Shown: positions 12 through 61,436 of the stretch, piece after piece
Numbering within the stretch: the first letter of the stretch is position 1
Layout: each line of letters opens with the position of its first letter
Origin: Patescibacteria group bacterium
Lineage (GTDB): Bacteria > Patescibacteriota > Patescibacteriia > 2-01-FULL-39-33
Assembly: GCA_041649575.1 (NCBI GenBank)
Contig: JBAZMW010000003.1
Span: 58,102-122,101 of the forward strand
Length of the DNA: 64,000 nucleotides
Direction: 5' to 3'
Translations under genes and position numbers: made by a program
The notes under the pieces: model-generated
What the model was told of the DNA's origin: nothing
Databases searched by the model: none
What the model saw: only the letters and a program-made list of their open reading frames with translations

Positions 12-1241
12 ATGTTAGGAAAACAGCAAAAGAAATTTTGTTTGATTTTCTGCCAAACACGGACGCAGGCGAAGCAGCACATGATGAATATTCGGGGTGA
101 ACTTGAAGGTAACGACCTCTTAAAGAAAGATTTGGGCCCTTTTCAGGAGCAAAGCGATGAATGGGGTTCATATTCGCTTGTGTTTAACAAAAGCGGCGCC
201 CGTATTACTGTGGCGTCAACTGAACAAAGCATCCGAGGCATTAGGCACAACGAACATCGGCCGGATTTAATAATCTGTGACGACGTTGAAGACGTCCAAT
301 CAACCAAAACTCGCGAGGGCCGGGATAAAACCTACCAATGGCTTTATGGCGAGGTCATGCCCGCTGGAGACCGCAAAACTCGCTTAATAATTGTCGGTAA
401 TCTTTTACATGAAGATTCCCTGCTAATGCGGATTAAAGACGATATCAAAAATAACCGATCAAAAGGTGTCTTTAAACAGTATCCCCTGCTCGACACTAAT
501 GATGTTTGTCTATGGCCCGGGAAATATCCCGAAAAAAAAGACATTGAAGAAGAAAAGCTAAAAATTGCTAGCGAAATATCATGGCAACGTGAATACCTGC
601 TTCGCATTATTCCCAGCGACGATCAGGTTATATACCACGAATGGTTAAATTATTATGACAATTTACCAAGTCAAAAACATATTGCTTATCGGGGCACCTA
701 CGCTGGCGTGGATTTAGCCATTTCAACTGAAGATTCAGCTGATTTTACCACAATCGTTTCAGCGAGAATATATGGCCGGGCGGAAAAATTAAAAATATAT
801 ATTCTTCCAAATCCCATTATGGAAAAATTGAATTTCCCAGCTCAAGTGGAATTAATGAAAAATTTTAAAGCCACGCAAATGCCAAATTATAGTGATACCC
901 TATTTGTCGAAAGTGTCTCATATCAAGAAGCTTTGCCGCAAATGTTAGAGTTAAACGGCGTTGATGCGGAATCAATCAAACCAAAGGGCGATAAACGGAC
1001 ACGGCTTGCCTTAACATCGACATCAATTAAATCCGGCATCATTAAATTTCCACGACATGGTTGTGAGCGGCTAATTGAGCAGTTAGTGGGCTTCGGCGTT
1101 GAAAAGCATGACGATCTGGCCGATGCTTTTTCATTATTAATTAATTCTACTTTAGACAAGCACGCCCATGAATCAACGTGGTATATGGCTTTCCTGGGTG
1201 GTAAAACCTATTATTATCCTGATTACGTTGACGTGGACTAG
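12..1241 (+). CDS. phage terminase large subunit (TerL), N-terminally truncated by window edge
   Basis: Walker-B-like DLIICDDVED followed by an RNase-H-like nuclease region (GVDLAISTEDSADFTTIV ... KHDDLADAF) typical of terminase_6-type TerL; ORF runs off the 5-prime end of the window. Confidence 0.6.
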   Translation: MLGKQQKKFCLIFCQTRTQAKQHMMNIRGELEGNDLLKKDLGPFQEQSDEWGSYSLVFNKSGARITVASTEQSIRGIRHNEHRPDLIICDDVEDVQSTKTREGRDKTYQWLYGEVMPAGDRKTRLIIVGNLLHEDSLLMRIKDDIKNNRSKGVFKQYPLLDTNDVCLWPGKYPEKKDIEEEKLKIASEISWQREYLLRIIPSDDQVIYHEWLNYYDNLPSQKHIAYRGTYAGVDLAISTEDSADFTTIVSARIYGRAEKLKIYILPNPIMEKLNFPAQVELMKNFKATQMPNYSDTLFVESVSYQEALPQMLELNGVDAESIKPKGDKRTRLALTSTSIKSGIIKFPRHGCERLIEQLVGFGVEKHDDLADAFSLLINSTLDKHAHESTWYMAFLGGKTYYYPDYVDVD

Positions 1242-1333
1242 CGAAAAATAGCAAATGCTATGTAAAAAGATGCCAACAAGTTGCCAACAGGTATAGCTTA
1301 GCAAAACCGCTAATCTCTGGCATCAATGTATAC

Positions 1334-2653
1334 ATGGATACCAACCAAATCTCAGCACTTATAGGCAAGCCTGCCATAGTGCCCATAATTAAGGCTAAAT
1401 ACGTCCTGTACGCTCGAAAATCGACCGAACAGGACGAAAGACAAGCCTTATCAATTGAATCTCAGGTCAAAGAAATGCTTGCCATAGCGGAGCGTGAAAA
1501 TCTTGATGTTATCGATATACGGCGTGAAGCCCATTCGGCCAAAGATTCGGGTCAGCGCCCGGTATTTAAAGAAATTTTGGAAGATCTGCGACGAGAGCGA
1601 TTTAACGGCATTTTAGTCTGGCACCCTGATCGCCTAAGCAGAAACGCCGGTGATTTAGGGTCGTTGGTAGATTTAATGGATCAAAGGCTACTAGTCCAAA
1701 TACGTACCTACGGGCAAACTTTCACCAATACGCCAAGCGAGAAATTTTTACTAATGATTTTATGTAGTCAGGCAAAACTGGAAAACGATAATAAAAGCAT
1801 AAACGTAAAGCGTGGCCTAAGGACACGGGTTGAAATGGGGTTATGGCCAGCGACAGCACCGACCGGATATCTCAATGAGAAAAGAATTGACCGAAAAGGT
1901 TATGTTCTCGTTGATCCTGACCGAGCGCCGATTATTAAACAAATGTTTGAAAAAGTCGCCTACGAAAAATGGACTGGCAGAAAATTATACCATTGGCTGA
2001 GATTTGATTTAAATTTCAGAACAGCGGCAGGCGGAAAGCATTTATCGTTGGGCAACATATACGTATTACTACAAAATCATTTTTACTACGGCGTATTTGA
2101 GTACCCGAAAAAAAGTGGCAATTGGTACAATGGCAAACACACTCCAATTATCACCAAGGAGTTATATGACTTGGTTCAAGGACAAGTCAAAAGCCAAATT
2201 ATGAGATCAGAGACTAAGGAGTTTGCGTTTACCAAACTTATAACCTGTGGTTTATGCGGATCAGGGATAACGGCCGATGAAAAATTTAAAAAGCAAAAAG
2301 ATGGCAGCGTCCACCGTCATGTTTATTATAAGTGCACAAAATCAAGAGATAAAGATTGTAAGTGCGGATTTATAAATGAGATTGAATTGTTAAAACAGTT
2401 TGAAAAATTAATCAACAAAGTCAGCATAAATGAAATGGGCATGAAAGAAAAAATTAAATATGAAGTTGAAAGAATTAAAAAATTTCAACAATCCATACTT
2501 GGCGTAAAGCAAGATATTAAAATAAAAGACGTAGACATCCGAGACTACGCCAAATTTATTTTAAAGGATGGATCTGTTGAAGAGAAACGAGAATTACTGA
2601 GTTGTTTTAAAAGCAAAATTACTTTACAAAATAAACAAATTTCCCTTCGCTAA
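1334..2653 (+). CDS. large serine recombinase (phage-type integrase)
   Basis: N-terminal resolvase catalytic domain (YARKSTEQDERQALSIESQ ... HPDRLSRN), recombinase domain and C-terminal Cys-rich zinc ribbon (CGLCGS ... YYKCTKSRDKDCKC). Confidence 0.8.
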   Translation: MDTNQISALIGKPAIVPIIKAKYVLYARKSTEQDERQALSIESQVKEMLAIAERENLDVIDIRREAHSAKDSGQRPVFKEILEDLRRERFNGILVWHPDRLSRNAGDLGSLVDLMDQRLLVQIRTYGQTFTNTPSEKFLLMILCSQAKLENDNKSINVKRGLRTRVEMGLWPATAPTGYLNEKRIDRKGYVLVDPDRAPIIKQMFEKVAYEKWTGRKLYHWLRFDLNFRTAAGGKHLSLGNIYVLLQNHFYYGVFEYPKKSGNWYNGKHTPIITKELYDLVQGQVKSQIMRSETKEFAFTKLITCGLCGSGITADEKFKKQKDGSVHRHVYYKCTKSRDKDCKCGFINEIELLKQFEKLINKVSINEMGMKEKIKYEVERIKKFQQSILGVKQDIKIKDVDIRDYAKFILKDGSVEEKRELLSCFKSKITLQNKQISLR

Positions 2654-2689
2654 ATTAATTCATATTTAAAATATAATATTTCCCACAAA

Positions 2690-3211
2690 TTATCGAAATG
2701 TCCACCCACGTTCTTTTGATAATCCTAATAGATCCAAACATCCAACATTATAAGATGAGTCCTTACAAATATTAGGAATGGTCCATTTTGAGGGTTTAAG
2801 ACTGACCGTATAGCGTTCTTCGGTAATAATTTTTAATCCTTCATGTTTTGCCTGAGCGATTAGCCAAGGATCTGCATGCACTGAACCGATCTTTGCGTTA
2901 ACAAAAGATGAAAATTTTGGTGACATGGTACGTAAAATTTTACCTTCCGCAATTAAATTATAATCCTGAAAAATACTTTTATTTTTTTGTGCCCAATCAT
3001 ACAATTCTATACCTTTCTTACCGTCAGTTTTTATCTCTAATAGAACTTCAACATGAGAAATAATTATTCCCTGTTTAATTAAATCTAAAACATTTGCCCA
3101 AAGTCCCGGAGTAACTTCTTTTGATGACCATCCTGTGCCATTAAAAATATCCATCAATGAACTACTATCGATGGTGTATTCAGCAGGCTTTGAAAAAAGG
3201 TCATTAATCAT
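2690..3211 (-). CDS. PIN-like nuclease-domain protein (DUF4411-like), putative toxin partner
   Basis: N-terminal TIDSSSLMD and C-terminal HADPWLIAQAKHEGLKIITEE fit PIN-domain acidic motifs; about 170 aa; start overlaps the stop of the upstream ImmA/IrrE-HTH gene (3204..3211). Confidence 0.5.
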   Translation of the reverse strand: MINDLFSKPAEYTIDSSSLMDIFNGTGWSSKEVTPGLWANVLDLIKQGIIISHVEVLLEIKTDGKKGIELYDWAQKNKSIFQDYNLIAEGKILRTMSPKFSSFVNAKIGSVHADPWLIAQAKHEGLKIITEERYTVSLKPSKWTIPNICKDSSYNVGCLDLLGLSKERGWTFR

Positions 3212-4394
3212 AGGAATTTAAAACATCTCTAAATCCAGAAATATACCTTCTTTTTAAACCAAGATAATCAGAGACTGTTGAGTAAGAAATTTTATTGTGA
3301 CTATAGGCCTCAATCACTAAAGAGCTAAAAGATTTTCCATTTTTTTGAACAATTGTTTTTAATGAAAAACTGCCACCCGCTTTTCGTTTTGGCATTAATG
3401 ATTTATCCCAAGTTTCAACTTTATCTAAATATATTGATTTTTCAATCAACTTAAAAAATAACATTCTCCTCAATATAACCACTCTACTAACCTTAAAATC
3501 TATGGCTAATTTTCTGACAATCGAATCAAGATCGTCCGAACTAATCTTATTAATATTTCGTAACAAATAATGATTTAAAAAATCATCCTCGGGAACTAAA
3601 AAATTTGCTGCGAATTTATTACAAAATATTTCGACTTTATTAACGTGACCGTCAACATCATCAAATATTTTAAAATTATTACATAATCCAGTCTCACGTA
3701 ATAAAATATGTGCAAACTCATGAGCTAAAGAAAAATTTTTAGCACCCTCATAGTCTTTATTATTTATTAAAATCACATATGGCTTTAAATCAGCGAAAGA
3801 AAAAGCCCTATAGTCCTCCGTGGGGAAAGTATCGTGCAGAACCGCCTTTAAAGTGATCACTCCCGTTGCTTCAATCTTTGACCTAAGGTACTCAAAAAAA
3901 TCTTCATATTTTTTAAACTTAAATTGATCATTTGCGGAAATTGACAATTCGGATCTAATTTTATTGGCTAAGTGCTCGGGATTCTGATCAAGTGTGTATT
4001 TCGGATATTTAAATATTGGTTTTTCTCCCAATTCTTCATAGAGGCTTACTGCTGTCTCCTGTATCTTCCTTGCTTTTCTTATAGCTAGTAAGCCTTTTGG
4101 AGAAATGTCAAAATTATCTTTCGAACCAATAGTTCTGAAATCCGGCAAACTAATCTTCTCTTCAGGTGAATGAGCAAGAAAAAAAACCGCCAATGGGCGT
4201 TTGTATATTTCAGCGAGTTTTTTAATATCTCTAAAAGTGGGCTGAGTCTCACCAGATTCCCACCTTTTTATTGTATCTACTGAGACTTCTTTCCAAGATT
4301 TTCTAAGTTGGGTGGTCAAATTTTCTAAATTAGCACCAAAACTTATTTCTCTTGCCCACTTCAATATTTTTGGTTCAAATATTAAATTTTCCAT
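3204..4394 (-). CDS. HTH (XRE) + ImmA/IrrE family zinc metallopeptidase
   Basis: N-terminal XRE-type HTH (TQLRKSWKEVSVDTIKRWESGETQPTFRDIKKLAEIY) and HEXXH motif (SLAHEFAHILLRE) typical of COG2856/DUF955 peptidases. Confidence 0.75.
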   Translation of the reverse strand: MENLIFEPKILKWAREISFGANLENLTTQLRKSWKEVSVDTIKRWESGETQPTFRDIKKLAEIYKRPLAVFFLAHSPEEKISLPDFRTIGSKDNFDISPKGLLAIRKARKIQETAVSLYEELGEKPIFKYPKYTLDQNPEHLANKIRSELSISANDQFKFKKYEDFFEYLRSKIEATGVITLKAVLHDTFPTEDYRAFSFADLKPYVILINNKDYEGAKNFSLAHEFAHILLRETGLCNNFKIFDDVDGHVNKVEIFCNKFAANFLVPEDDFLNHYLLRNINKISSDDLDSIVRKLAIDFKVSRVVILRRMLFFKLIEKSIYLDKVETWDKSLMPKRKAGGSFSLKTIVQKNGKSFSSLVIEAYSHNKISYSTVSDYLGLKRRYISGFRDVLNSYD

Positions 4395-4454
4395 ATAGAG
4401 TTACTCGAAATAATTTTTTCAGGTATTAATTATCATGTTTAATTTTTGAATAAA

Positions 4455-56791: not shown

Positions 56792-57884
56792 TTATTTTTT
56801 AATTTTCTGCCGCAGGTAGCTTTCGACCAGTTCATTAATTTTGCCGGCCAAAACACCATCCACGTCGGCTGTTTCATAAGTGCTGCGGTGGTCTTTGACC
56901 AGCTTATAGGGCTGTAAAACATAGGATCGCGCTTGATTACCCCATTGCGCTCGTAAATATTCGCCCTTTATTTCTTTAAGCTTGTCACTTTCCTGTTCGG
57001 TATAATATTTGAGCAACTTGGCCTTTAAAAGCTTGAGAGCATTATTTTTATTTTGAAGCTGCGAACGCTCGTTCTGACATTTTACGCTGAGGCCACTGGG
57101 CAAATGTGTAAGACGCACCGCCGAATCGGTGGTATTAACCGATTGGCCGCCGTGGCCAGAAGAACGCATCACCTCTACTTTTAAATCATCGTCCCTAAGG
57201 GGGATCTCTTTTATCTCTTCTATTTCCGGCAGAACTTCAACCAAGGCAAAAGAGGTGTGTCGCATCTTTTCGGCGTCAAAAGGAGAAATGCGCACCAGGC
57301 GGTGAACCCCGTTTTCGCTCTTCAGCCAACCATAGGCATAACGGCCAGCTACCTCCAAAACCACATTTTTTAAACCAGCTTCTGAACCAGCGACCTCGTC
57401 AATAATCTTGGCCGAAAAATTATGTCGCTCGCAAAATCTTAAATACATCCTTAGTAACATTTGAGCCCAATCTTGGGCGTCAACACCACCAGTGCCGGCA
57501 TGAATTGATAAAATAGCGTTATTTTTGTCGTACTGGCCGGCGAATAAAACCAAAAATTCCAGCTGCTTAAAATTATTTTCCAACTTCTCCAACTTAAGTC
57601 TAATCTCTTCCAGTAAAGCTTCGTCTTGTTTGGCTAATTTAACTAACTCTAAAAGCTCGTCTAACTCTTTTTTTAAGTCATGCCACTGATTAAATTCCGT
57701 TTTGGCATTATCGTAATCTTTGGTTAAGGCTTTGGCTTTGACTGATTCCAGCCAAAAATCCGGCCGGGCGATTTCTTTGTCCCAGGACAATAACTGTTGC
57801 TTTAAGCCATCCAAGTCAAAGCAACCTCCAAGACCCAGAGACCTGTTTTTGCAAATCTTTAATTTGAGAAATTAGCTCTTTCAT
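56792..57884 (-). CDS. prfB: peptide chain release factor 2, with programmed +1 ribosomal frameshift
   Basis: SPF and GGQ motifs. The upstream 22-codon frame (MKELISQIKDLQKQVSGSWRLL) ends at in-frame UGA 57818-57816 within GGAGG-ttg-CUU UGA C; a +1 shift continues into the main frame (track ORF 56792..57814). Confidence 0.85.
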
Positions 57885-58279: not shown

Positions 58280-58981
58280 TTAATTCGACCGTAAATAACA
58301 ACTTTTGACCTGCTGGCCGGCTAAACGCAAAAAATTATTTAATTCCTTGGGACTGAAGCTTTTTCCTTTAAAATCAGAGCCGACCAGCTTGTCCCGAAAA
58401 ATAAAATTTTGTAAGTAGTATTTCTCTGCGCCTTTTATAGTCTTGAGCATTTTTTTAAAATCGCTCACCCGGTGCAGGCCTTTAACCAGTGTGCTACGAA
58501 ACTCGTAGGGCAAACCGCTGGTTTTGATAATTTTAATACTGGCCGCTAGCTTAGTCGAGTCAACCTTTACGCCACAAAATCTTTCATAATCATCTAAAGG
58601 GCCCTTGATGTCCATGGCTAAATAATTAACTAATTTTTTGTCAATTAATTTTTTTAAGACTGCCGGCAAAAGCCCATTAGTATCAATTTTTATTTCATAA
58701 CCATCTTTTTTCAAACGACGACAAAAACCAAACAGGCCCCTCTGCATTAACGGTTCACCTCCCGTAATCACCACGCCGTCAAGATATTTTTTTCGATCGG
58801 ATAAAAAATTAATCGTTTTTTTGACTGATCGCCTAGAATCTGCCTTGGCCAGCTCGGGCAAAACCAGCTCGGGATTATGACAAAAAGAGCAGCGCATATT
58901 ACAACCACTGGTAAATATAATCGCTGCCACTTTTTGCGGATAATCCAGTAGGGTGACTGGTTGTAACCCGCCAATAATCAT
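58280..58981 (-). CDS. nrdG: anaerobic ribonucleoside-triphosphate reductase activating protein (radical SAM)
   Basis: CNMRCSFC (CxxxCxxC) radical-SAM motif; adjacent to nrdD. Confidence 0.85.
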   Translation of the reverse strand: MIIGGLQPVTLLDYPQKVAAIIFTSGCNMRCSFCHNPELVLPELAKADSRRSVKKTINFLSDRKKYLDGVVITGGEPLMQRGLFGFCRRLKKDGYEIKIDTNGLLPAVLKKLIDKKLVNYLAMDIKGPLDDYERFCGVKVDSTKLAASIKIIKTSGLPYEFRSTLVKGLHRVSDFKKMLKTIKGAEKYYLQNFIFRDKLVGSDFKGKSFSPKELNNFLRLAGQQVKSCYLRSN

Positions 58982-58986
58982 AAATC

Positions 58987-59136
58987 TTAAATTTCGGAAC
59001 TGACCGCCCTAAACGGTTTGCGATCATCGTATTCCGATTGCTTGCCGGCATTCCAAGAATCAACCGGCCGCAAATAACCGACGACCCGGGAGTAAACCTC
59101 ACAAGGCTGACGCCTTACCTTTTTGTCATCTTCCAT
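58987..59136 (-). CDS. free-standing 49-aa glycyl-radical peptide (NrdD C-terminal domain encoded as a separate ORF)
   Basis: MEDDKKVRRQPCEVYSRVVGYLRPVDSWNAGKQSEYDDRKPFRAVSSEI contains the class III RNR glycyl-radical signature R-V-x-G-Y. It fits exactly between the nrdD stop (59165) and the nrdG start (58981), in a different frame from nrdD. Confidence 0.55.
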   Translation of the reverse strand: MEDDKKVRRQPCEVYSRVVGYLRPVDSWNAGKQSEYDDRKPFRAVSSEI

Positions 59137-59164
59137 ATTAAAAAGTTATTTTTATTAATATATC

Positions 59165-61210
59165 TTACAGAGGTAATTTTTCTTCTTGTTCCCGGATAAA
59201 ACCGATTTCCTCATCACAAACAGGACAAAAACGATGTTCACCGGAAAGATAACCGTGTTTGGGACAAATAGAAAAAGTCGGTGTTAACGTGTAATAAGGC
59301 AAACGAAAATTTTCGGCGATTTTCCTCACCAGCTTTTTGGTACTTTCGATGTTTGGCATTTTTTCCGCCAAAAAACCGTGCACCACGGTGCCGCCAGTAT
59401 ATTTGACCTGCAACGGGTCTTGTTTTTCCATCACTTCAAAAATGTCTTCGGAAAAATTAACGGGGAGGTGGGAGGAGTTGGTATAATAAGGCGCTGCTCC
59501 TTTTTCTCGATAAGCGTCTTCATTGGCCACCACTATATCTGGGTATAACTCTTTATCCTTCTTGGCAAAACGATAAGTGGCGCCTTCGGCTGGAGTGGCC
59601 TCCAAATTATACAGCTGGCCGTCTTCCTCTTGATATTTTGCTAAACGTTGCAGCATAAAATCCATGACTTTCAAGGCGAAGTCCTGGCCTTCAGGAGTGG
59701 AAAGCGGCCGATTTAAAAAGTTAATCATGGCTTCGTTCATACCGTTGATGCCGATGGTATTGAAATGGTTTTTCCAATACTCGCCAAACCTTTCCTTAAT
59801 CTCCTTAAGATAAAATTTACTATAAGGATAAAGCCCCTGCTCTGTAAAAGTTTCTAAAATATCGCGTTTTAATTTCAGGCTCTGACGCGCCAAATCCATA
59901 GTCTGGCCGAGCCGGCTGAAAAAAGCGTCTTTGGTTTTTGATAAATAACCGATCCGCGGCAAATTAATAGTCACCACTCCTATTGAACCGGTCAAGGGAT
60001 TAGCGGCAAAAATTCCGCCGCCACGCTTTTTTAATTCACGATTATCCAATCGCAGGCGACAGCACATGCTGCGGGCATCTTCGGCTTTCATGTCAGAATT
60101 CACAAAATTGGCAAAATAAGGTATGCCATACTTGGCGGTCATTTCCCAAACCGGATCCAGAACTTTATTTTCCCAGTTAAAATCTGCGGAAATATTATAA
60201 GTGGGAATCGGGAAAGTAAAAACACGGCCGTTAGCATCGCCTTCCAACATTACCTCGGCAAAAGCCTTATTAAGCATATCCATTTCCGGCTGGAACTCTT
60301 TGTAAGCTTCTCTTTGCGGCAAGCCACCAATAACTACCGACTCATTGGCCAGAGTGGTAGGACAAATTAAATCAAAAGTTAAATTAGTAAACGGCGTTTG
60401 AAAGCCAACCCGGGTGGGAACGCTCATATTAAAAACAAACTCCTGCATGGCTTGCTTAACCGCTTTTTCATCTAGATTGTCATAACGAATAAAAGGAGCG
60501 AGCAGAGTGTCAAAATTGGCCAAAGCCTGGGCCCCGGCAGCCTCGCCTTGTAAGGTATAAAAAAAGTTAACAATCTGACCCAGAGCAACCCTTAAGTGTT
60601 TAGCCGGCTTACTGTTTACCTTGCCATCAACACCGCCGAAACCCAACCGCAAGACGGCTTGCAAATCCCAACCACAGCAATAAACCGCTAAAATCTGCAA
60701 GTCATGAAGATGAATGCTGCCGTCAATGTGCGCTTCGCGAATCTCTTGAGGATAGATTTTATTAAGCCAATAGTGAGAGCTGACCGCCGAAGCCACGTGA
60801 TTATTCAATCCTTGCAAAGAATAGCTCATGTTGGCATTCTCTTTGACTCGCCAATCCAATTGTTTCAAATAGCCGTCGATAATATCATTGGAATCCAGCA
60901 TTTTTTTCATGTCTCTGAGCTGGGCATGCTGGGCTCGATAGATAATATAGGCTTTGGCAGCCTTGACCAGACCTTCTTTAATCAAAGTTTCCTCGACTAT
61001 ATCCTGGATTTCCTCAATCGCCGGAATAGAACGGGGGTGAAACTTACTATTAAGAATTTGAACGGCTTTATCGGATAACTCAAGGGCTAGTTTTTCGTCG
61101 TCCCGACCAACTGCTTTCAGGGCCTTGTAAATCGCCTGGACGATTTTGTTCTGGTCAAAGTCAACAATACTGCCGTCTCGCTTTTTAACCTGTTTGATTT
61201 GGGTATCCAT
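59165..61210 (-). CDS. nrdD: anaerobic ribonucleoside-triphosphate reductase (class III RNR) large polypeptide, lacking the glycyl-radical loop
   Basis: ATP-cone N-terminus, class III core, C-terminal Zn site CPKHG-x9-CPVC; the ORF ends 16 aa after the Zn site with no RVxGY motif. Confidence 0.9.
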   Translation of the reverse strand: MDTQIKQVKKRDGSIVDFDQNKIVQAIYKALKAVGRDDEKLALELSDKAVQILNSKFHPRSIPAIEEIQDIVEETLIKEGLVKAAKAYIIYRAQHAQLRDMKKMLDSNDIIDGYLKQLDWRVKENANMSYSLQGLNNHVASAVSSHYWLNKIYPQEIREAHIDGSIHLHDLQILAVYCCGWDLQAVLRLGFGGVDGKVNSKPAKHLRVALGQIVNFFYTLQGEAAGAQALANFDTLLAPFIRYDNLDEKAVKQAMQEFVFNMSVPTRVGFQTPFTNLTFDLICPTTLANESVVIGGLPQREAYKEFQPEMDMLNKAFAEVMLEGDANGRVFTFPIPTYNISADFNWENKVLDPVWEMTAKYGIPYFANFVNSDMKAEDARSMCCRLRLDNRELKKRGGGIFAANPLTGSIGVVTINLPRIGYLSKTKDAFFSRLGQTMDLARQSLKLKRDILETFTEQGLYPYSKFYLKEIKERFGEYWKNHFNTIGINGMNEAMINFLNRPLSTPEGQDFALKVMDFMLQRLAKYQEEDGQLYNLEATPAEGATYRFAKKDKELYPDIVVANEDAYREKGAAPYYTNSSHLPVNFSEDIFEVMEKQDPLQVKYTGGTVVHGFLAEKMPNIESTKKLVRKIAENFRLPYYTLTPTFSICPKHGYLSGEHRFCPVCDEEIGFIREQEEKLPL

Positions 61211-61436
61211 GATAATTTAAAGCTATTTTAACCCTTAAATTACTTAAATTTAAAGAAAATAAAAATAGACCTAGAAACTTGGTTGTCACAAACTGTTAAA
61301 ATTCAAGTCTTAGCTAGATCTATCGGAATCTACGGTTATTATTAATTATAGCACTCCCAAAATGGCTGTCAAAAAATTAATTTTATTAAACTTTTTAGAG
61401 ATTTTTTCTAAGCAGCCGGGGGTTTTGTGGATAAAT

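Follow-up and report, generated by a model that had tools for sequence, protein, structure and literature searches.

A 64-kb stretch of the genome of a Patescibacteria group bacterium (contig JBAZMW010000003.1; this whole stretch is the window, whose numbering is used for all coordinates below) encodes, on its minus strand, an anaerobic class III ribonucleotide reductase (RNR) that is divided between two genes. The first, nrdD-large (59165–61210), encodes a core of 681 amino acids (aa) comprising an ATP-cone, an alpha/beta barrel and a Zn site, and the glycyl-radical loop is absent from it. That loop and the C-terminal tail of NrdD are found on a separate small open reading frame (ORF) of 49 aa and 5.7 kDa (58987–59136; MEDDKKVRRQPCEVYSRVVGYLRPVDSWNAGKQSEYDDRKPFRAVSSEI), followed by nrdG (58280–58981), which encodes a 233-aa radical S-adenosylmethionine (SAM) activase of the NrdG2 type. 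Class III RNR is a textbook glycyl-radical enzyme (GRE), and to our knowledge every characterized member bears the radical glycine on the catalytic chain. We consider it likely, with a probability of roughly 0.8, that this locus encodes a functional, natively two-subunit class III RNR, and the two-gene arrangement appears to be best explained by a fission of nrdD that fell within the glycyl-radical domain at its C-terminus.

Matches to protein families place the two ORFs side by side on the same profiles. Within Pfam NRDD (PF13597), residues 124–668 of the large ORF cover positions 1–532 of 562 (E = 1.7e-182) and the small ORF covers positions 531–561 (E = 5.5e-10); within NCBIfam NF006126, the large ORF spans positions 2–654 of 684 and the small ORF positions 649–682. 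Thus, each ORF supplies what the other lacks of a single family profile, the division falling at about position 532 of 562 of NRDD. This bears out the proposal of an earlier note on this DNA, drawn up from the sequence alone, that the class III RNR is split and that its glycyl-radical loop has an ORF of its own, lying between nrdD and nrdG. The large ORF also matches the Pfam ATP-cone (aa 7–96) and scores 1031.9 bits against NF006126, an NrdD equivalog model with a cut-off of 548 that it exceeds about two-fold, and 525.5 bits against TIGR02487 (cut-off 326); the nrdG product scores 199.3 bits against TIGR02495 (NrdG2; cut-off 131). The NrdD family is accordingly satisfied by the pair of ORFs and not by a single chain, the RVxGY motif lying off the core. 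The finger-loop cysteine pair C383-C384 (SMCCRLR; 60059–60064) aligns with the sCCRL segment of T. maritima NrdD (4COI), and is the presumed thiyl-radical site, to which the peptide glycine would pass the radical.

The small peptide itself is recognizably the glycyl-radical segment of NrdD, as the earlier note had read it. Its profile aligns with the loops of T. maritima NrdD (RIVGYL, chain residues 616–646) and P. copri NrdD (RITGYL), and its own motif is SRVVGY, with G20 (codon 59077–59079) as the presumptive radical glycine. NRDD is its sole Pfam match, Gly_radical giving none at E ≤ 1, and its NCBIfam matches are exclusively NrdD models; judged by these matches, it is not a member of the GrcA family. 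No curated family dedicated to the peptide was found in Pfam, NCBIfam or PHROGs. Its relatives in the database number 579 at E ≤ 0.01; the top 120 are without exception free-standing ORFs of 43–77 aa, many of them on contigs longer than 100 kb. An alignment of 34 free-standing homologues contains 16 invariant positions, G20 among them, in the pattern C-E-x-Y-S-R-V-x-G-Y-x-R-P-V...N-x-G-K..E...R. The match of the small ORF to NrdD is far beyond chance.

At the junction, the details given in the earlier note could be read directly from the sequence: a 681-aa nrdD that ends 16 residues after its Zn site without the radical motif, a 49-aa ORF 28 nucleotides (nt) downstream in another frame, and an end of that ORF 5 nt before nrdG. 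The C-terminus of nrdD-large reads ...FSIC649PKH652GYLSGEHRFC662PVC665-DEEIGFIREQEEKLPL-TAA. The Zn-site segment, C649-P-K-H652 ... C662-P-V-C665 (59216–59266), is presumed to bind metal, and the extension that follows (aa 666–681; 59168–59215) is not present in fused relatives. The TAA stop codon (59165–59167) is succeeded by an AT-rich intergenic gap (59137–59164; coding strand GATATATTAATAAAAATAACTTTTTAAT) and by the small ORF, which has its own ATG and stop and begins with an N-terminal extension of 11 residues, MEDDKKVRRQP. The earlier note had located the feature at 58987–59167; the region is correct, and the wording needs amending, as this span extends across the small ORF and the gap and includes the stop codon of nrdD, with the genes on the minus strand.

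The same architecture recurs in many other genomes. When one genome for each GTDB species was scanned with the small-peptide alignment, more than 596 loci came back, and the best 80 were retained; these comprise 46 ordinary fused NrdDs, at least 22 loci split like that of the window (L003, L004, L006, L007, L009, L010, L011, L016, L017, L019, L026, L028, L030, L033, L041, L050, L053, L055, L058, L062, L068 and L075) and a few other cases. In the split loci, the core ORF ends 14–40 residues past the Zn site and is followed, after a gap of 0–179 nt, by a small ORF of 38–66 aa with its own ATG. Core and peptide adjoin in all 22 split loci examined, and in every one except L062, hence in 21, nrdG is the next gene after the small ORF. 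The split loci come from Patescibacteria (including Dojkabacteria and Saccharibacteria), Anaerolineae, Hippea and DPANN archaea, and one of them, L062, from an isolate, Thermodesulfobacterium thermophilum DSM 1276, in which the core holds an intein. In L062, a 77-aa Cys-rich ORF (4174–4407) stands after the small ORF in place of nrdG.

Both pieces have been kept under constraint. Within the window's clade, synonymous differences in the small ORF are effectively saturated (proportion pS 0.55 or higher) and non-synonymous differences are low (pN 0.07–0.31; dN/dS 0.06–0.21 where estimable), indicating strong purifying selection on the small peptide; the core ORFs of relatives are intact and 55–84% identical to that of the window. 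In a neighbour-joining, midpoint-rooted tree of the cores, which is indicative only, the window falls in a monophyletic clade of 11 split loci with core identity down to 58%, and other split loci occupy at least three further places: one among Anaerolineae/Bipolaricaulota, one holding two DPANN loci beside a fused one, and L011. The depth of the monophyletic clade implies that the split has been maintained for a long time. As far as such a tree can indicate, the split would be old, and either ancestral to several lineages or arisen more than once.

An artefact or decay of a fused nrdD, whether through a frameshift introduced by sequencing or assembly or through a stop that recently made it a pseudogene, had been raised as an alternative in the earlier note; it is effectively refuted, and we regard it as extremely improbable. 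The source is a metagenome-assembled genome, and frameshifted nrdD copies do exist in draft genomes, yet a Logan contig assembled independently from SRR8542065 agrees with the window at every position over 3,962 bp, junction and peptide included. Nor is there a point lesion: in fused relatives, the linker from CPxC to (P)CEVYSRVVGY is 3, 5 or 8 residues long, whereas in the window about 27 extra codons (16 on the core and 11 on the peptide) plus 28 nt lie between CPVC and CEVYSR. A survey of relatives, as the note had advised, turned up the same split, with its own start codons, in at least 22 further species-level genomes, the isolate included; purifying selection acts on both pieces, and the core is intact (1032 bits). 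A truly frameshifted copy looks quite different. In L054 (2002–4126; Syntrophomonas palmitatica JCM 14374, a draft), nrdD switches frame three times and has neither linker nor ATG; in contrast to the clean split, it would represent either a low-quality draft or a real pseudogene.

A different possibility is that the two ORFs are recoded into a single-chain NrdD with a long linker, by programmed frameshifting, stop-codon read-through or ribosomal bypassing. Recoding does occur in this organism, as the neighbouring prfB has a programmed +1 frameshift; a bypass of a 50-nt gap is known from T4 gene 60 (bioRxiv 10.1101/2022.08.31.505936), and in L011 the two pieces are separated by a single in-frame TGA. 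At the window junction, however, the frame of the large ORF ends in TAA and contains a second TAA within the gap, and that of the small ORF is shut by a TAA 12 nt before the ATG, at a point beyond the end of the large ORF, so that there is no overlap for a +1 or −1 shift. Across the split loci, the pieces share a frame in nine and differ in frame in 13, the gaps vary in length, and gap sequences are not evidently similar by inspection, without a formal alignment. The stop codons differ and are mostly TAA, and release factor 2 (RF2) is present, so that UGA is a stop. The ATG starts of the small ORFs are conserved and, where the lineage uses ribosome-binding sites, these precede the small ORF as GGAGG-type sequences (L062, L053, L033, L075, L019 and L068). 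Recoding is thus a very unlikely account of the locus.

Turning to what distinguishes split from fused cores, an alignment comparison revealed no systematic difference except the C-terminal tail. A tail of the form CD-E-(I/V)-G-(Y/F) is present in 81–88% of split loci in the alignment, and its positions are gapped in 92–100% of fused ones; the CPxHG...CPxC Zn pattern is common to all fused and split relatives. Compensating core changes were considered and set aside, since besides the tail only the single positions 290 and 632 differ, probably for phylogenetic reasons. The notion that the tail motif EIGY is a degenerate duplicate of the VVGY radical loop was likewise dropped, the likeness being too weak. 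The extensions fall into distinct types. Patescibacteria and DPANN share CD-E-(I/V)-G-Y..., and Anaerolineae and Thermodesulfobacterium share CPY(D/P)H..E(E/D)L..(F/Y)GV.... A third, Hippea type from hydrothermal vents (L082:3380–3570, L085:3300–3570 and L033) has the core tail EEEINKEIERLKTMLNKMEE and the peptide N-terminus TREEILRKIKELEEKKKQIKG, also read as ...CPICKREKEEEINKEIERLKTMLNKMEEKKAV and MTREEILRKIKELEEKKKQIKGTP..., respectively; their pattern suggests amphipathic heptad helices that could pair as a coiled-coil tether. The intergenic gaps of the Hippea type contain short tandem repeats (tagtcat, ggtgaat). Two fused loci, L052 with a 13-residue linker and L078 with a 21-residue linker, carry split-type tail motifs and look like intermediates between the fused and split forms.

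The extensions also bear on whether the two products are ligated after translation by a split intein or a similar device, a scenario to which we assign next to no likelihood. Inteins are common in NrdD of related genomes (L062, L007, L017, L061 and L072), but the 27 extension residues of the window (16 + 11) are far too short for known split inteins and contain no intein blocks, and the extensions are completely different between lineages. The conserved Cys before EVYSR also occurs in fused forms and is therefore no feature of a splice junction. NrdD cores lengthened to 1000–1386 aa by one or more inteins were noted in L062, L003, L007, L017, L052, L061, L070 and L072; the insert in L062 (ORF 953–3967) follows VPTRVGFQ and begins CLSEDTEIL. 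The Cys in question, Cys12 of the small ORF (59101–59103), does not vary among the 34 free-standing homologues. Almost every locus of this NrdD subfamily, fused or split, has it, although one split locus (L038) has Ala there, and it is absent from the NrdDs of T. maritima, T4 and P. copri. With C649, H652, C662 and C665, Cys12 makes up five potential Zn ligands and could form part of an inter-chain metal clamp in split enzymes.

From these features, we infer how the two pieces would assemble, be activated in trans, catalyze reduction and confer an advantage. The core retains the ATP-cone, the catalytic barrel with its finger-loop cysteines and the Zn ribbon, and the peptide comprises the buried glycine loop and tail. 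NrdG is proposed to remove a C-alpha hydrogen from Gly20 of the peptide, which would then dock non-covalently in the barrel next to C383/C384, where fused NrdDs hold their attached loop, and hand the radical to the finger-loop cysteine for reduction of nucleoside triphosphates. By itself, the peptide would be expected to fold only once bound. The extensions at the core C-terminus and the peptide N-terminus originated with the split and probably help to keep the pieces in contact. In fused enzymes, the glycyl-radical domain consists of a Zn site, the buried glycine loop and, last, a C-terminal tail lying across the barrel, and the break falls within this domain. High mobility has been described for the domain as a whole (PMC11226230). 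With respect to the advantage, the economy would lie in remaking only a 49-aa consumable after oxygen damage, and not a 730-aa enzyme. Oxygen destroys GREs by chain cleavage at the radical glycine, and replacement of only the oxygen-damaged module is plausible as speculation.

Several points weigh against a two-subunit enzyme. The extensions of the window's clade are short (16 and 11 residues), and non-covalent retention of a buried radical loop is mechanistically demanding. A ribosome-binding site is absent before the small ORF, as is usual for this genome; in L011, the TGA is followed directly by an in-frame ATG, such that read-through may occur at that single locus; and a second, full-length nrdD may lie elsewhere, the 64-kb window, in which none was found, being only part of the genome. 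The last point matters for the view that the peptide is a true spare part, a GrcA-like repair module for a full-length NrdD elsewhere, with the adjacent core a non-catalytic or regulatory remnant. Core-less NrdD C-terminal pieces occur in Paceibacterota (L022, L035, L039 and L069) and in phages, and a spare-part role seems real for some members of the family; the 64 kb seen could have missed a second enzyme. At this locus such a role is nevertheless unlikely, as the adjacent core is intact, highly conserved, equipped with all catalytic motifs and linked to the peptide in 22 of 22 split loci, with nrdG almost always next in line, and the window itself holds no second nrdD. Small Patescibacterial genomes, moreover, rarely carry redundant RNRs. 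Because the adjacent core lacks a loop of its own, the peptide would be the primary and presumably obligate radical subunit of a two-subunit RNR. The analogy with GrcA/YfiD drawn in the earlier note consequently stands in one respect, a radical module provided in trans, and fails in the other, the peptide not being a spare.

Free-standing peptides of the NrdD type are also found in viruses. The same search of IMG/VR viral contigs returned 507 loci, and among the best 80 (L086–L165), 65 are short free-standing ORFs, most of them without an NrdD core or nrdG within 3 kb (for example, L087:3001–3126, L092:259–597, L106:3001–3126 and L144:2794–3156). Free-standing phage peptides with no core nearby are as expected if the module acts in trans. 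Neighbours in the contigs that were checked include genes for head-tail adaptor, head-closure and portal/head-morphogenesis proteins, endolysin and SbcD, and these head, connector and lysis functions mark real phage contexts. The phage ORFs take three forms: bare loops of about 45 aa; loops with a 'NGDLVLDDGTVIPAEKRQP' extension; and proteins of about 90–120 aa with a CxxC...CxxC ribbon plus the loop, that is, a complete free-standing radical domain. To the last form may be compared the 'nrdD' of archaeal virus ANMV-1 (KP703175.1; L166:3707–4141), a 144-aa complete radical domain and not a reductase, which had been taken as a sign of 'an oxygen-sensitive ribonucleotide reductase' (PMC4372165). 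By analogy with T4 Y06I, which serves pyruvate formate-lyase (PFL), the phage peptides may be spare parts for the class III RNR of the host.

Cellular genomes contain a comparable element. Four Paceibacterota/Moranbacteria genomes (L022:3671–4132, L039, L035 and L069) encode free-standing ORFs of 145–153 aa equivalent to the C-terminal ~110 residues of NrdD, a segment that begins with the YYTNS motif and takes in both the Zn site and the glycine loop; they have their own ATG and a Lys-rich N-terminus, and no NrdD core or nrdG is found within ~3.6 kb. The L022 ORF lies between prfB and ftsE. These would constitute a second kind of detached NrdD C-terminus, either a spare part or a remnant. Together, the viral and cellular examples suggest that trans-acting radical modules of the NrdD type may be a wider phenomenon. 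We tentatively raise the possibility, which falls well short of our confidence in the two-subunit enzyme, that NrdD-type glycyl-radical peptides in general serve as an exchangeable 'radical cartridge'. NrdG would activate them off the enzyme, and they would be loaded in trans into a core that has no loop or whose loop oxygen has cleaved, to be thrown away once oxygen has damaged them. In the minimal genomes of Patescibacteria and DPANN, this would be the usual form of the sole RNR, and phages would bring cartridges of their own, either bare loops of ~45 aa or Zn-ribbon-plus-loop domains of ~110 aa, to sustain the RNR of the host during infection.

With respect to expression, a promoter-like site on the minus strand (TTGACA, 16 nt, TG-TATAAT; 61345–61372) lies ~135 nt upstream of the nrdD ATG; the assignment rests on a consensus match, 12/12 to sigma-70 with an extended −10 TG. 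No obvious NrdR box was seen in the ~125-nt leader between this site and nrdD, and no terminator was found in the 28-nt gap. A promoter upstream of nrdD and a gap without a terminator make the three genes look like a single operon, and nrdD-large, the small ORF and nrdG appear to share one promoter and one transcript, from which each would be translated on its own. A loose Shine–Dalgarno (SD)-like motif precedes only 8 of 39 long ORFs in the window, most of which start after AT-rich leaders, and translation initiation in this Patescibacterium thus appears largely SD-independent. Upstream of ORF 56792–57814, prfB, encoding RF2, contains its programmed +1 frameshift (57815–57883, minus strand), a known phenomenon; the site reads MKELISQIKDLQKQVSGSWRLL followed by CTT TGA C, and a GGAGG is found 3 nt upstream of it. 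This GGAGG implies that the anti-SD interaction works here although SD sites are few, and the UGA at the frameshift site of prfB itself implies that this organism uses UGA as a stop codon. An alternative genetic code was rejected on the same grounds, together with the TAA stops at the locus.

The small ORFs have already been predicted by gene callers, and NCBI names them 'anaerobic ribonucleoside-triphosphate reductase', 'hypothetical' or 'oxidoreductase'. In the literature, with most subscription journals outside the coverage of the search, neither a split NrdD nor an autonomous radical protein of the NrdD type was found to be described; a split class II RNR (NrdJa/NrdJb) was found and a split class III RNR was not. 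The split NrdD is apparently a real, conserved and undescribed architectural variant of a well-known enzyme. If the two-subunit enzyme is borne out, the buried radical loop of an RNR can be supplied non-covalently, NrdG would have a minimal natural substrate, and the radical module could be isotope-labelled or mutated apart from the core. It would also answer a question posed in PMC8683613 by extending spare-part logic beyond PFL, and would hint at how ultra-small anaerobes and phages economize on an oxygen-fragile essential enzyme; the cartridge proposal, if true, would add a spare-part or cofactor-protein system to a group so far confined to the formate-lyases, and would be the first such case. 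Two annotations call for correction: hundreds of ORFs of ~50 aa carry the label 'anaerobic ribonucleoside-triphosphate reductase', and the ANMV-1 'nrdD', from which the host was concluded to be anaerobic, amounts to no more than a radical domain of 144 aa. The presence of the split in cultured T. thermophilum DSM 1276 makes the idea directly testable.

Compared with canonical single-chain NrdD (4COI/4U3E, T4 1H78 and P. copri 8P23), the window system belongs to the same family, with the same domain order and the same NrdG partner. It shares the ATP-cone, the CC finger-loop barrel, the Zn site, the RVxGY loop and the NrdG2 activase, and presumably the chemistry, but places the glycine loop and tail on a separate 49-aa polypeptide and adds extensions of 16 aa on the core and 11 aa on the peptide. 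A functional parallel is with YfiD/GrcA of E. coli and Y06I of phage T4, which supply a radical loop in trans to oxygen-cleaved PFL (PMC8683613). Like these, the window peptide is a small free-standing carrier of a radical glycine, its presumed activator being the cognate radical-SAM activase, and phages encode modules related to it, Y06I offering a parallel. GrcA differs in being a homologue of the C-terminal part of PFL, whereas the only profile that the window peptide matches is that of NrdD; GrcA has ~127 aa with a folded domain, compared with 49 aa here, and it backs up an enzyme with its own loop, whereas the core here has none. The 2021 paper considered spare parts for other GREs merely possible (PMC8683613), and a 2026 review of GREs names formate-lyases as the only class with such small proteins (PMC13450708).

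Two precedents for divided enzymes are also relevant. In Pseudomonas aeruginosa, according to the passage of PMC9669993 that cites Crona et al. 2015, class II RNR is split into NrdJa and NrdJb. As described there, an RNR catalytic chain is likewise divided between neighbouring genes, the second of which encodes the C-terminal module with its Zn finger and Cys pair; that system differs in belonging to the B12-dependent class, in the position of the split and in its large second piece, and its separated module delivers reducing equivalents and carries no radical. The class I RNR gene nrdA of Aeromonas phage Aeh1 was reportedly split by the homing endonuclease mobE, as described by Friedrich et al. 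in 2007. Similarly, the T4 topoisomerase genes 39 and 60 are split by MobA, and where the chain is broken their products keep extra residues at the C-terminus of one piece and the N-terminus of the other (bioRxiv 10.1101/2022.08.31.505936). Both cases resemble the locus described here in that an essential enzyme is made as two reassembling polypeptides. They differ in that the 28-nt gap here holds no endonuclease gene or remnant, and in that the split NrdD is cellular and widespread, its second piece being a 49-aa carrier of the radical.

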